Shown here: positions 4,287 through 55,828 of the stretch, in pieces
How the letters are laid out: each line of letters opens with the position of its first letter
Numbering within the stretch: position 1 is the first letter of the stretch
Assembly: GCA_044892525.1 (NCBI GenBank)
Contig: CM097885.1
Coordinates: forward strand, 5,458,001 to 5,522,000
Source of the DNA: Schmidtea polychroa
Taxonomy: Eukaryota
Direction of reading: 5' to 3'
Length of the DNA: 64,000 bases
Made by a program: the position numbers and the translations under genes
The notes under the pieces: generated by a model
Told to the model about the DNA's origin: nothing
Databases searched by the model: none
Seen by the model: the letters and a program-made list of their open reading frames with translations, nothing else

Positions 4287-6196
4287 AGTAGTAGGATGTG
4301 TCACCTACAGGACATGTCACCTCCAGGACACTATAAAATAAGTTGTATAAAACAAGTTAAGTAGTATAAAATAAGTATAAATTAAGTTAAAATTTAAGTA
4401 GGTCAAGCTAAATTAAGTAGATCAAGTTAAAATTATGTAGGTCACGACTATATAGTTTAAAAATATGTAGGTCAAGTTAAAATTAAGTAGATCACGACTA
4501 TATAATTTAAAATATGTAGGTCAAGCTAAAAGTAAGTAGATCACGACTATATAGTTTTTAAAATATATATAGGTCAAGTTACTTTAAACATGTGTCACCT
4601 CCAGGACACATATATATATATATATATATATAAGTAGGTCAAGTTAAAATTAAGTAGATCAAGTTAAAATTATGTAGGTCACGACTATATAGGTATTAAA
4701 ATATGTAGGTCAAGTTACTTTAAATATATGTTACCTCCTGGACTCTATATAATCAAGTATGTCAAGTTAAAATTAAATAGGTCACGACTATATAGTTTAA
4801 AAATATGTAGGTCAAGTTAAAATTAAATAGGTCACTACTGTATAGTTTTTAAAATATGTTGGTCAATTAATTTAAACATGTGTCACCTCCAGGACACTAT
4901 ATAAATTAGTAAGTCAAATTAAGTAGGTCACGACTATATAGTTTCAAAAGATATTTGAGAGTAGAGTACAATGATCATACCTTCAAAGGTGTATGGTGAA
5001 TCCTTAACCTTCAAAAGGTGCAAAACCCTCGAATTTTTTCAAACTCTATAATACATGTCATTCAAAAGGTAATTGAGATGTGAGTATGATGGTCATACAA
5101 TCAAAGGTGTATGGTGAGTCCTTCACCTTCAAAGGGTCAAAAACTTTCGAATTTTTTCAAACTTTATAATATATATACATCATTCAAAAGGTATTTGAGA
5201 GTAGAGTGTGATGGTCATACCTTCAAAGATGTATGATGAGTCCTTACCCTCAAGTGTCAAAAAACTTTGATTTTTATTCAAACTGTAAATTGATCATTAC
5301 AACAAATTTTCAATCCCCAAAATAAATTTCCCAACTCAAAAATTTCCCAAATTTTAAAAATTCTCAAAAACAATTTTCCCAACTCAAATTTTTTCAAAAA
5401 TTAAAAAGTCCCAAAAATGAAATTCCCAAAATTTCCCAACTCAAAATTTTTCAAATTTTAAAAAGTTTTCAAAACTATTTTCCCAAATTTTCCAACTAAA
5501 TAGTAAAAGAATGTTTTACAAATTTTTTTTTTCTCGAATACATCAAACCAAAAATTTAACAAGGTTAGTCACACAAATCTAATTCTGAAATCAAACAAAT
5601 GAATTTAATAAAAATTAAAATCATCAACATACCCAAACGCCGCTTACTCGCCCGCCCGCCGCCCGCGCCGAAGGGGCTGGCGCGGTAGTTTGTAAATTTG
5701 GTTTAGTTTGAATATTATTATTTGCAACATAGTTGTATTATTTACAATATTCAAAGTATTAATAACAAAGGTAAAGAAATAAATGTTTATTAAATGTATA
5801 TAGTATGATACTCATTAATATACATTGAACATGCTTTACATTTGCGAACATTTTAAATTTGAATTTTAAGGATTACCTTCGATAGATTATATTGAATAAT
5901 GGTTCATTAAAAAGGTCTCGAAGAGCTCTATCCAATGATTATATATTATAAGATATATTGTTTGTACACAATATAGTAAGTATTATTATTTTTATTATTA
6001 TTTTTATTAACAAACTACATCCTAATAAAATACTTCTACACTTCAAATTATTAAAAAAAAAATAAAAAATAAAAAAAAATAATAATAATAAAAAATAAAA
6101 TAAAACCGATAATTATAAAACGAAAAGAGACTTTACAATAATTTCTATTTTACAAAAATTCAAACATGTCCGATCACCGAATTAAATTAATCTTGT
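4287..6196. repeat. P1 left inverted arm
   Basis: Reverse complement of 53837-55828 apart from repeat-number differences and a short indel. Confidence 0.95.
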
Positions 6197-8253
6197 AGAT
6201 GTTGATTGATGAGATCGGGATCTGCTCCTGATTGAATATCATTATCGTCATCATCAATGACATCAACCCCTAAATAATGACCATATGCAAAACTAGAGTT
6301 TTTCTCTACCCAAGCTCTTTTATCATCATGATTAGTTAAAGCAATCTTTGAGTTTTTAAAGGTAAAAAGCTGATGATTTCGGGTTCCTATTCTAGTCTGA
6401 GGTACAGAAATAACTGTGTTGTTGTTGTAACAATCTAAATAGGATTGATGTTTTATATCTGTACCTGGTAGTTTTACGCCCTTAGCTCTCATAGTAGATT
6501 TATTTCCTAAAAGACTGTAGCACTTTGGTCGCAAGAAAACCCACTCACTATATCCTACACCCTTACTCTCATCCTTAAACTTTCCTATAACTGAGTCGAG
6601 TCTCCTAGAATATAAAGGATGAGAGGGATCATAATTTGAGGTGTCTAACAAGTCATCCGAAATCATTGCTGGCAAAAGAACGTCAAGCTTTAAATTTTTG
6701 ACCTCTAAGAAGAAACTATCGGTATCACCCGCAACTATATTTATATCACAGTTAAACTGACTCCTATATTTTGCTAATTCTATGTACTGTAATTGATACA
6801 TCCTTAGTTTGGATAAATCCAGCACTGATTGTCCGATGTAGCTGGGTCTATCCAAACATATAGACTCCTTATTGAGATGTAAACCAAAAAGATCATCATC
6901 AATTTTGATGGTTTTTCTAAATGATGGTTTTGATGAATATGTAATTAATTTTTTCGCGGAATTACATAGTCGTAAATTTAATCTCTTCTTAAGGTTTTCA
7001 ACGGATTTACCGTACAAGCTATTATTATACAATTTGAATAAATCTCTGTACAGTTCACTGCTTGCTTCAGCTCTTAGTTGTGTATTTTTATTTATATAAT
7101 TTTTAAAAATCGGTGCTTGCTTGAATTTTATAGCCCTATGGATATGTACAACTTTGGCACCAAGAAACAAATAAAGCTTGAGAAGCCTCCAATGAAGAAC
7201 ATGGTTCTTCTTTGGCCAATGCGTGAGCATCAACTTCTCAACTTTCGAACCAGGCGGGCACATTTTCTCAGGAGCAAGAGGAAAGTCATTTAAAAAATCA
7301 TGAAAAATTTCTGGAATATCTATATCCACTTCTATGGTATAACCATAGGGAAGGATTTCAATGTCAGCATTCATGCACTCAAGCAATACATCATTCAATC
7401 CATAATACACCCAAGTGAAATCAGCAAAAGGAAGATTTTGGCTAAGAGCCCAACCATACAGATTATTTATATCAATATATAATAATTCTGTATTATCAGA
7501 AGCAGCAACGTAATGTTTGTTAACAAATGTTAACCCACCACGTATTCCTCCTTCGTAAAAATTGAACATTTCCATGTCCTGTAAAAGTTCTATAGGCTCA
7601 GTTAATGTCATAAGCGCTGATGCCCATGACATACCCGGAATACCATAAAGGTTTAGAGGTTCTAGACCATTGTATGCGATGGCCTTGGCACGGAATTGTT
7701 GGAAATAGTCCGCAAGGAGGAATACATCCAATTTTTGATAAGTTAACATATAGTCAGCCAATTTAGTACAACGTTGTTGAGTCCAAATAAGTTGAGCTTT
7801 AGTATACTCATCTTCAGTAACACCAGACCAAATAGGAGGCAATTCATAAGTGGTTTCAAGTACATCCAAATCAGTCGCATAATCATAAGGAAATATGGCT
7901 TTAGCATCTATCATTAGCCTATCAAAAACCGACGAAGTCAAAGGAAGATCAGTTAGAGTTTTTACAGCCTTAGCCAAAGAACAATTAACAAATTGCATGC
8001 TGTCGATAAAACGAACAGCTAATTTTTTAATGTGAACAATCATCGAGATAAATTTCTCTGTGCTTGTGGGTATTATATTCAAATTCCAAGAAGGAAAGCC
8101 ATTGAGACCATATTTTAAAATATGGTGTAAGTCGTATCCTCGTAAATTATGAAATACAATCGGCAACTGTTTATAAATTCTGCGAGCCATATTACATTTC
8201 CTACAGGCTGCACCGAGATAATTACCAGTAAAATGGTCATGATCTCGAACAGC
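6187..8253 (-). pseudogene. polB: P1 protein-primed DNA polymerase B, C-terminal part
   Basis: RDHDHFTG, FHNLRGYD, YIDINNLYG, KLYNNSLYGK, GDTDS, PKCY motifs; cut by P2 at 8254. Confidence 0.95.
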
Positions 8254-53821: not shown

Positions 53822-53836
53822 TCATCAATGACATCA

Positions 53837-55828
53837 ACAAGATTAATTTAATTCGGTGATCGGACATGTTTGAATTTTTGTAAAATAGAAATTATTGTAA
53901 AGTCTCTTTTCGTTTTATAATTATCGGTTTTATTTTTATTTTTTATTATTATTATTTTTTTTTTTATTTTTTTTTTTTTTTAATAATTTGATGTGTAAAA
54001 GTATTTTATTAGGATGTAGTTTGTTAATAAAAATAATAATAAAAATAGTAATACTTACTATATTGTGTACAAACAATATATCTTATAATATATAACCATT
54101 GGATAGAGCTCTTCGAGACCTTTTTAATGAACCATTATTCAATATAATCTATCGAAGGTAATCCTTAAAATTCAAATTTAAAATGTTCGCAAATGTAAAG
54201 TATGTTCAATGTATATTAATGAGTATCATACTATATACATTTAATAAACATTTATTTCTTTAACTTTGTTAGTAATACTTTGAATATTGTAAATAATAAA
54301 ACTATGTTGCAAATAATAATATTCAAACTAAACCAAATTTACAAACTACCGCGATAGCCCCTTCGGGGCGGGCGGCGGGCGAGTAGGCGGCGTTTGGGTA
54401 TGTTGATGATTTTAATTTTTATTAAATTCATTTGTTTGATTTCAGAATTAGATTTGTGTGACTAACCTTGTTAAATTTTTGGTTTGATTTATTCGAGAAA
54501 AAAAAAAAAAAATTTGTAAAACATTCTTTTACTATTGAGTTGGGAAATTTTGGGAATTTCATTTTTGGGACTTTTTAATTTTTGAAAAAATTTGAGTTGG
54601 GAAAATTGTTTTTGGGAATTTTTAAAATTTGGGAAATTTTTGAGTTGGGAAATTTATTTTGGGGATTGAAAATTTGTTGTAATGATCAATTTACAGTTTG
54701 AATAAAAATCAAAGTTTTTGACACTTGAGGGTAAGGACTCATCATACATCTTTGAAGGTATGACCATCACACTCTACTCTCAAATACCTTTTGAATGATG
54801 TATATATATTATAAAGTTTGAAAAAATTCGAAAGTTTTTGACCCTTTGAAGGTGAAGGACTCACCATACACCTTTGATTGTATGACCATCATACTCACAT
54901 CTCAATTACCTTTTGAATGACATGTATTATAGAGTTTGAAAAAATTCGAGGGTTTTGCACCTTTTGAAGGTTAAGGATTCACCATACACCTTTGAAGGTA
55001 TGATCATTGTACTCTACTCTCAAATATCTTTTGAATGATGTATATATTATAGGGATACATGTTTAAAATAACTTGACCTACATATTTTTTATAAACTATA
55101 TAGTCGTGACCTACTTAATTTGACTTACTAATTTATATAGTGTCCTGGAGGTGACACATGTTTAAATTAATTGACCAACATATTTTAAAAACTATACAGT
55201 AGTGACCTACTTAATTTTAACTTGACCTACATATTTTTAAACTATATAGTCGTGACCTATTTAATTTTAACTTGACATACTTGATTATATAGAGTCCAGG
55301 AGGTAACATATATTTAAAGTAACTTGACCTACATATTTTAATACCTATATAGTCGTGACCTACATAATTTTAACTTGATCTACTTAATTTTAACTTGACC
55401 TACTTATATATATATATATATATATATATATATATATATATATATATATATATATATATATATATATATGTGTGTCCTGGAGGTGACACATGTTTAAAGT
55501 AACTTGACCTATATATATTTTAAAAACTATATAGTCGTGATCTACTTACTTTTAACTTGACCTACATATTTTAAATTATATAGTCGTGATCTACTTAATT
55601 TTAACTTGACCTACATATTTTTAAACTATATAGTCGTGACCTACATAATTTTAACTTGATCTACTTAATTTTAACTTGACCTACTTAAATTTTAACTTAA
55701 TTTATACTTATTTTATACTACTTAACTTGTTTTATACAACTTAATTTTATAGTGTCCTGGAGGTGACATGTCCTGGAGGTGACATGTCCTGGAGGTGACA
55801 TGTCCTGGAGGTGACACATCCTACTACT
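53837..55828. repeat. P1 right inverted arm
   Basis: Reverse complement of 4287-6196. Confidence 0.95.

Follow-up and report, generated by a model that had tools for sequence, protein, structure and literature searches.

The window analysed here, 64,000 nucleotides of the Schmidtea polychroa contig CM097885.1 (C1:5458001–5522000), belongs to an AT-rich genome of 781 Mb that lies mostly within four large contigs. It contains four Polinton-type units, P1 to P4 (Table 1), all with sequence for the protein-primed family B polymerase (pPolB). Our subject is chiefly P3, which represents a dispersed palindromic family, termed family C, that encodes a polymerase under purifying selection and has no capsid or integrase gene in the copies read. 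Motif and pattern counts below refer to the whole genome, and structures to a few dozen loci that were read (numbered L).

We tested 1,970 AGTAG/CTACT pairs lying more than 1 kb apart in the window for exact repeats of a 6-bp stretch of target site (target-site duplications, TSDs). Four pairs have one: TAAGAT brackets P1, AACAGC brackets P2, CACCAT brackets P3 and P4 together, and the fourth is a trivial TATATA match within the arms of P1 itself. The best explanation is a nest of independent insertions, P1 having come first, with P2 and a P3+P4 composite arriving later in its polymerase gene, which is split twice by them. Polintons also lie within Polintons at L027 and L031, so the nest resembles ordinary accumulation. 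Dating it by terminal-repeat divergence (1.3% in P1, 4.4% in P2 and 2.2% in P4) was abandoned, as repeat arrays distort the values and the nesting order is not followed.

An earlier note on this DNA had suggested that P1, P3 and P4 may be helper-dependent satellite or defective replicons, with P2 as helper, each keeping a pPolB in an insertion with its own exact TSD and AGTAG...CTACT ends. Its net lengths agree with ours (P1, 9,615 bp; P3, 6,242 bp; P4, 8,956 bp), and no integrase or ATPase frame is present in any of the three. The TSD holds for P1; P3 and P4 have a single pair in common. The end motifs are found at the insertion borders, P3 having no right end in the window. All three do keep pPolB as sequence, with the gene of P1 in pieces and that of P4 carrying an insertion of about 250 bp.

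Table 1 Features of the nested Polinton-type units (window coordinates)
Feature	Position	Strand	Remarks
P1, outer Polinton, family A	4287–55828		9.6 kb net; TSD TAAGAT; probable one-off derivative
P1 left arm	4287–6198	+	usual family inverted repeat ends near 5860; remainder is left-end sequence also at P1 right end
P1 pPolB, 3′ piece	6187–8253	−	
P2, Polinton, family B	8254–27378		full gene set; TSD AACAGC; within P1 pPolB; integrase triad substitution, protease frame shifted
P1 pPolB, middle piece	27379–27847	−	
Composite insertion P3+P4	27848–49455		single TSD CACCAT; in P1 pPolB
P3	27848–34089		a complete family C arm together with the palindrome centre; left end AGTAGT, right end absent
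P3 pPolB main exon	28560–31172	−	exonuclease and polymerase part; open frame
P3 pPolB upstream exons (predicted)	31173–32500	−	GT..AG intron-like gaps, spanned by intronless homologues in alignment
P3 array of ~144-bp repeats	33217–33878		adjoins centre
Family C centre of symmetry	33936–34087		loop with many TGAGTCA-type words, enclosed by short inverted arms
P4, Polinton, family B′	34090–49455		9.0 kb net; capsid/integrase block deleted internally; probable one-off
LTR (long terminal repeat) element in P4	36311–42716	+	LTRs 0.6% apart; gag-like frame; 4-bp TSD
P4 deletion junction	43789–43811		~20 bp imperfect overlap
P4 pPolB	43914–48312	+	interrupted by ~250-bp insertion at about 45058–45327
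P1 pPolB, 5′ piece	49456–50876	−	
Merlin/IS1595-type transposon within P1	51298–52471	−	terminal repeats; 8-bp TSD
P1 remnant	53270–53820	−	protease-like frame and 3′ end of major capsid gene
P1 junction	53817–53837		capsid gene, then 18-nt patch templated from left arm, then inverted left-end copy (copy-back type)
P1 right arm	53837–55828	−	~340 bp longer than inverted repeat of two other family A copies

Dispersal, layout and polymerase of family C

A search with P3 retrieved dispersed copies that are 91–96% identical over most of its length (best 16 of 6,231 candidates). The end motif of the family occurs 621 times genome-wide, against zero for the reversed control. Among 15 fetched loci, 11 have two ends (5.1–9.5 kb) and four have one; both ends of the two-ended copies are of the P3 left-end type, with (AGT)2 ends. 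An exact 6-bp TSD flanks nine of these 11 copies, and all nine duplications are different. Queried with the P2 proteins, none of 16 family C loci has a capsid, penton, ATPase or integrase match within the element, the sole such matches (L024) lying outside the element ends. Judged by these sequence comparisons, P3 is half of a member of a dispersed family of separate lineage, and not a deletion product of P2.

The unit of the family is about 12 kb: an end, pPolB, a promoter and repeats lead up to a short centre, beyond which come repeats, pPolB and the other end. At L035, two opposed polymerase genes lie between ends 11.9 kb apart. A polymerase marker, 3.4 kb into P3, has 818 matches genome-wide. 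Head-to-head pairing at less than 20 kb accounts for 54 of the first 100 matches listed (27 pairs), with no tail-to-tail pair, where chance predicts about one neighbour that close for 100 matches over 179 Mb. The paired markers are a median of 5.7 kb apart, and a mirror about the far end of P3 predicts ~5.5 kb. An inner marker, 0.85 kb from the centre, has 656 matches, 52 of the first 100 listed falling into 26 pairs at a median spacing of 2.3 kb, too close for a capsid/integrase block. In the fetched copies the inverted arms range from a few hundred bases to 4 kb, their lengths differing in every copy.

The centre itself has 44 matches, with eight head-to-head pairs spanning 152–335 bp. Nine other centre loci were read, four with inverted family C arms on both sides and two with an arm on one side. 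There are two types of centre loop, each recurring at unrelated loci; this, with the shared centre, argues that the symmetric form predates insertion. A true flip-flop of the loop was discarded as separate evidence, since a single palindrome yields both readings, depending on the arm at which one starts.

Fold-back reads could conceivably have created such palindromes during assembly, and two of seven arm pairs are indeed 100% identical over the exon compared, as polishing could cause. The other five differ by 0.3–0.6%, arms carry different deletions, the centre is shared among copies and is asymmetric, and in nine copies the symmetry ends at direct 6-bp TSDs with different flanks. We give an assembly artefact almost no credence.

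The match of the P3 polymerase to PF03175 exceeds the curated cut-off. In alignments, homologues cover 97% of the main exon and also extend, at 37–44%, into the upstream exons, where N-terminal terminal-protein and vOTU domains would be expected; here intronless homologues run across the GT..AG gaps, which points to the predicted introns. No splice-type joint was found among the joints listed in four contig sets, the RNA status of these sets being a guess. In a FastTree phylogeny of 60 rows, the polymerases of P1, P2 and P4 form one clade (support 100), outside which that of P3 groups with metagenomic proteins (59–62% identity, versus ~54% to the co-resident polymerases). The nine closest metagenomic contigs (1.5–4.5 kb) are too short to show a layout, and no relative with context was present in the viral contigs searched.

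Between elements, median identity is 98.3% and the ratio of non-synonymous to synonymous rates (dN/dS) of the polymerase is 0.31 (n = 18); arms of one element are 99.4–100% identical. Variants shared by two or more elements comprise 44 synonymous and 38 non-synonymous changes (dN/dS ~0.22), and private variants 57 and 127, respectively (~0.57; shared versus private, p = 0.0006). This pattern indicates that the family C polymerase is under purifying selection.

Several further loci carry parts of the family. A role at chromosome tips was considered and dropped: the run of same-strand ends at C1 0.98–1.01 Mb is a tandem repeat that contains a short piece of family C with one fixed flank. Seen at L034 (C1:981000–990999), this 4.4–4.6 kb repeat lies close to the contig tip and has taken up an end and a polymerase fragment of family C. 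At L042:48–3027 (C1:15074614–15077640), the centre stands between two outward-facing P4-like polymerase pieces, a hint that it also serves a second palindromic lineage. In L039 and L040, near-duplicates 250 kb apart, P2-like upstream sequence adjoins the repeats and the centre of family C (~1075–3027). Three TTAGGG units occupy the arm junction of L020 (5118–5140), as if telomerase had extended a broken end before rejoining; no such units were seen at the centre in the other loci where this was checked.

P1, P4 and the question of a helper

The P1 junction occurs once genome-wide with up to two mismatches allowed, and is absent from 39 other top matches (best 40 of 3,412 candidates), all of which stop at it. 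A 17.5-kb copy of family A, read at both ends and over 10 kb of its interior, has capsid, penton, integrase, ATPase, TBP and RING genes. The arms of P1 are alike over ~1.93 kb, versus 1.58–1.59 kb in two other family A copies (inverted repeats in the family span ~0.9–1.9 kb). This longer match and the 18-nt patch indicate that the right end of P1 was copied from the left with two template switches, and a plain deletion is ruled out by the same two features. The copying could have taken place in a free replicating molecule or in chromosomal repair.

Three other shortened family A copies all differ from one another: one of 9.1 kb has a truncated polymerase, one of 4.8 kb (L027) has none, and one of 11.8 kb has polymerase, integrase and ATPase and no major capsid. 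Since each has lost something different, polymerase retention is not a rule in family A. The polymerase gene that received the 4.8-kb copy is a distant one (~26% identity), so other Polinton lineages exist here as well.

P4 retains just ~125–150 bp upstream of its main polymerase exon; in the copy most similar to it (99%), genes for integrase, penton and capsid lie upstream of the polymerase. The P4 junction appears in none of 39 other top matches (best 40 of 2,671 candidates), and the insertion in its polymerase gene is absent from 24 other top-scoring copies. P1 and P4 are each best explained as single-copy derivatives of an ordinary capsid-bearing Polinton family. Two short frames in P4 (35650–36311) include one with a weak Bcl-2 match (E 0.008), and this region is also found in P2. 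The LTR element is young and holds a galactosyltransferase fragment (39770–40108); no reverse transcriptase was found among the frames scanned.

The CACCAT pair brackets the P3 left end and the P4 right end, which belong to different families and are alike at 13 of 30 bases. At the joint of the two units, which is unique, two bases of right arm past the centre are followed by the P4 left end; most simply, P4 inserted at a joint just beyond the centre of P3. The hybrid may have arisen when a molecule bounded by the P3 left end and the P4 right end was copied and integrated as one unit with one TSD, or when the P3 right arm was deleted between five terminal bases common to both ends. We lean somewhat towards the first route, keeping the second as a serious contender, because the second requires breakpoints exactly at both termini.

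P2 carries pPolB, capsid-like, integrase, ATPase, TBP and RING genes, all profile matches save for the two capsid-like frames, which have no Pfam match. Going by gene order and by known features of the family, we take its 426-amino-acid frame to be the major capsid and the adjacent frames to be the penton and protease. A substitution affects the first residue of the integrase catalytic triad, and the protease frame is shifted. A TBP-like gene (22743–23207) stands head-to-head with the ATPase gene, as it does in family A copies.

The full integrase, capsid and packaging set that the earlier note saw in P2 is thus complete and not undamaged. The special role of helper, which it gave to P2, is not borne out: lying inside a P1 gene, P2 arrived later and could not have helped P1 to integrate, and a capsid search found at least 97 other copies 99–100% identical to that of P2, so helpers are plentiful and P2 is not special. 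That P1, P3 and P4 are all propagating, polymerase-retaining satellites helped by P2 we consider very improbable. In its favour, all three lie within TSD-bounded insertions and lack an integrase, the copy-back end of P1 is the expected look of a replication-born defective genome, and a unique junction is compatible with such a genome integrated once. Weighing more heavily are the unique junctions of P1, P4 and the P3–P4 joint, the existence of full-length relatives, the loss or truncation of the polymerase in two of three other shortened family A copies, and a proposed helper younger than the P1 insertion and itself damaged. For P1 and P4 the proposal is largely refuted, with locus-unique junctions and fuller, capsid- and integrase-bearing relatives elsewhere, the outcome that the note itself had linked to deletion after insertion. 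Integration in trans as a helper-dependent satellite is supported for the P3 family, more strongly than the note had seen, in which the dN/dS comparison that the note proposed for satellite polymerases detected purifying selection. P1 and P4 illustrate that shortened copies at one locus are no evidence of satellites unless their junctions recur.

A proposed replication model and the nearest known systems

Dispersal, TSDs, palindromic layout, shared centres, absence of capsid and integrase from the copies read and a selected polymerase are all observed for family C. We think it probable that the family is a ~12-kb palindrome that copies itself by fold-back with its own spliced pPolB and is inserted by the integrase of other Polintons, P1 and P4 being one-offs. 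The polymerase, with its predicted terminal-protein primer, would start at both AGTAGT ends and copy the element by strand displacement. The displaced, self-complementary strand would fold into a hairpin of ~6 kb with its origin rebuilt, and copying round the loop would restore the palindrome. Capsid-bearing Polintons, which are abundant, would then supply the retroviral-type integrase that inserts this two-ended form with a 6-bp TSD; dependence on a helper integrase or capsid is suggested by the TSD together with the missing gene. Once in the chromosome, the palindrome would lose parts of an arm or of the centre, and the arms would exchange sequence; at this locus, the right arm of P3 would have been replaced by P4.

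Several points weigh against this model. The data are assembled contigs, and neither a free form nor a transcript nor an integrase partner came to light in them. Those loci that were read are the best P3 matches, biased to polymerase-bearing copies, and are few relative to several hundred; roughly half of the marker matches are unpaired, their far side unread. Likewise unread are several pairs of family C ends separated by more than 12.5 kb, with marker positions alone bearing on some, so these and the unpaired markers leave room for a capsid-bearing parent. The gene search used P2 proteins, and a distant capsid module could be missed. In three of the nine centre loci (two being near-duplicates) the centre adjoins family B-like sequence. 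Only seven of 24 arms, three of them partial, are free of stops and frameshifts in the main exon, the other 17 being broken. Lesions private to one element are present in both of its arms in L014, L023 and L035, and those private variants that occur in both arms seem neutral (five synonymous, against 18 that are non-synonymous or stop). Together these two observations indicate that arms are kept alike with no selection involved, whether within the chromosome or through copying in trans, and the private stops of L014, L023 and L035 suggest arm-to-arm conversion in chromosomal palindromes. Arm identity is therefore no proof of a hairpin cycle, and we rejected it as such.

The same both-arm lesions would fit an origin of the palindromes in the chromosome itself, whereby a capsid-bearing Polinton breaks and its end copies back from the opposite terminal repeat, the capsid half becoming a mirror of the polymerase half; selection would then belong to a complete, unsampled parent. 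P1 offers an example of a copy-back end that includes a templated patch, each family C copy fetched has different arm lengths, and the inverted repeats of family A vary in length as well. We nonetheless judge this origin unlikely, given the same centre with two loop types at dispersed loci, a marker spacing that peaks at the full-palindrome value and the lack of any capsid-linked copy among the 16 loci.

Another reading of the broken genes is that family C is a palindromic integrase-borrower in which the polymerase has by now largely become a passenger; other polymerases would replicate the copies in trans, and the selection signal would be old. Stops or frameshifts in most arms and the neutral both-arm variants favour this, as do L041 and L046, which keep ends and centre and have lost most of the gene. 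Against it, shared variants of elements only ~2% apart are strongly skewed to synonymous, and no stop position is common to different elements, bar the near-identical L017 and L018. We hold it to be improbable, more so than an origin in the chromosome, and retain self-copying by fold-back as the preferred explanation.

Polintons are defined by polymerase and integrase together, and their excision, replication and re-integration are still a model. The families of P1, P2 and P4 are Polintons (Mavericks) proper, with pPolB, integrase and capsid module in one element. Family C resembles them in its AGTAGT...ACTACT ends, 6-bp TSD and protein-primed family B polymerase (PMC8097293, PMC6431247, PMC5499653). 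Published accounts give 6-bp TSDs for intact Mavericks (PMC8097293), a terminal-protein primer domain for Polinton polymerases (PMC11161782) and a defective state for 96% of vertebrate Polinton copies (PMC8097293, PMC6431247, PMC5499653), a picture that P1 and P4 fit. Family C departs from Polintons in that no copy read has integrase, capsid, ATPase or protease, the inverted repeat is the whole element, the polymerase is present twice and its gene has intron-like gaps. Non-autonomous Polintons were reportedly described by Kapitonov and Jurka in 2006, as non-coding families; like family C, they keep Polinton ends, lack the integrase and need enzymes in trans. In Caenorhabditis elegans, polymerase-plus-repeat loci without integrase are presented as remnants at 10 sites (10.1101/2024.01.15.575659); family C differs from these in its hundreds of copies, selected polymerase and palindromic unit.

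Cytoplasmic linear plasmids, transpovirons (PMC11161782) and fungal capsid-less pPolB elements (PMC13215967) have, like family C, lost particle genes and kept a protein-primed replicase. The linear plasmids are cytoplasmic or mitochondrial, and transpovirons have a polymerase–helicase fusion and ride on giant viruses. Family C differs from both in being palindromic and in residing, with integrase-type TSDs, in a nuclear genome of animal type. Nor does it look like a transpoviron by its polymerase: theirs is a helicase fusion lacking the exonuclease, and that of P3 matches PF03175 in full and no helicase. A deletion derivative of a yeast terminal-protein plasmid is reported to exist as a hairpin monomer and a palindromic dimer (Kikuchi et al., 1985), and by analogy this is what family C most likely works like. 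The yeast plasmid is a laboratory derivative in the cytoplasm, neither integrated nor an evolving family, and its hairpin has in family C only a putative counterpart. In copy-back (snap-back) defective viral genomes, an inverted copy of one end stands in place of the other; as a rule such genomes have lost the polymerase and do not persist for long. The right end of P1 and the overall shape of family C fit them; family C differs in a polymerase kept under selection. Terminal palindromes of endogenous virophages and Polinton-like viruses have also been proposed to fold back in replication; they are ~50 nt long, at the tips and mostly without pPolB (10.64898/2026.07.28.741278), whereas the symmetry of family C is central and takes in the whole element.

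Family C thus has Polinton ends, TSD and polymerase, has neither integrase nor capsid in the copies read, and probably works most like a capsid-less protein-primed plasmid, yet integrates. Among the titles and opening lines of abstracts considered, with subscription journals and Repbase entries outside that scope, no polymerase-only palindromic Polinton family is described. More tentatively, and as a possibility we rate well below the model itself, family C may be a nuclear animal counterpart of the hairpin plasmid: a DNA of ~6 kb, protein-capped at one end and closed by a hairpin at the other, cycling via a ~12-kb palindromic dimer, encoding a replicase only and parasitising the integrases, perhaps the capsids, of Polintons. 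It might then be the replicase-bearing member of a wider class of wholly palindromic Polinton-ended satellites, supplying polymerase to gene-less ones, its centre a site of opening and of joining to other Polintons, as in the P3–P4 hybrid.

A high-copy family encoding a polymerase alone would imply that replication is separable from integration and that an integrase acts on the ends of another family. For linear plasmids and transpovirons, a passage from virus to capsid-less replicon has been proposed; this family would be a living example of it inside a nuclear genome. The fold-back model predicts free 6-kb hairpin and 12-kb palindromic DNA in host cells.

Neighbouring features

Immediately outside P1 lies a fragment of a B-type Polinton (1668–2378). 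On the other side, hAT-type transposase pieces are found within 56696–64000, together with an intronless ABC-F gene (58656–60323) and its inverted partial copy (63474–64000). A multi-exon acidic gene lies upstream of the polymerase in three families (window 14655–16800 and 52470–53000; L033:8150–8830), and the acidic genes of all three end in a similar short C-terminal motif.

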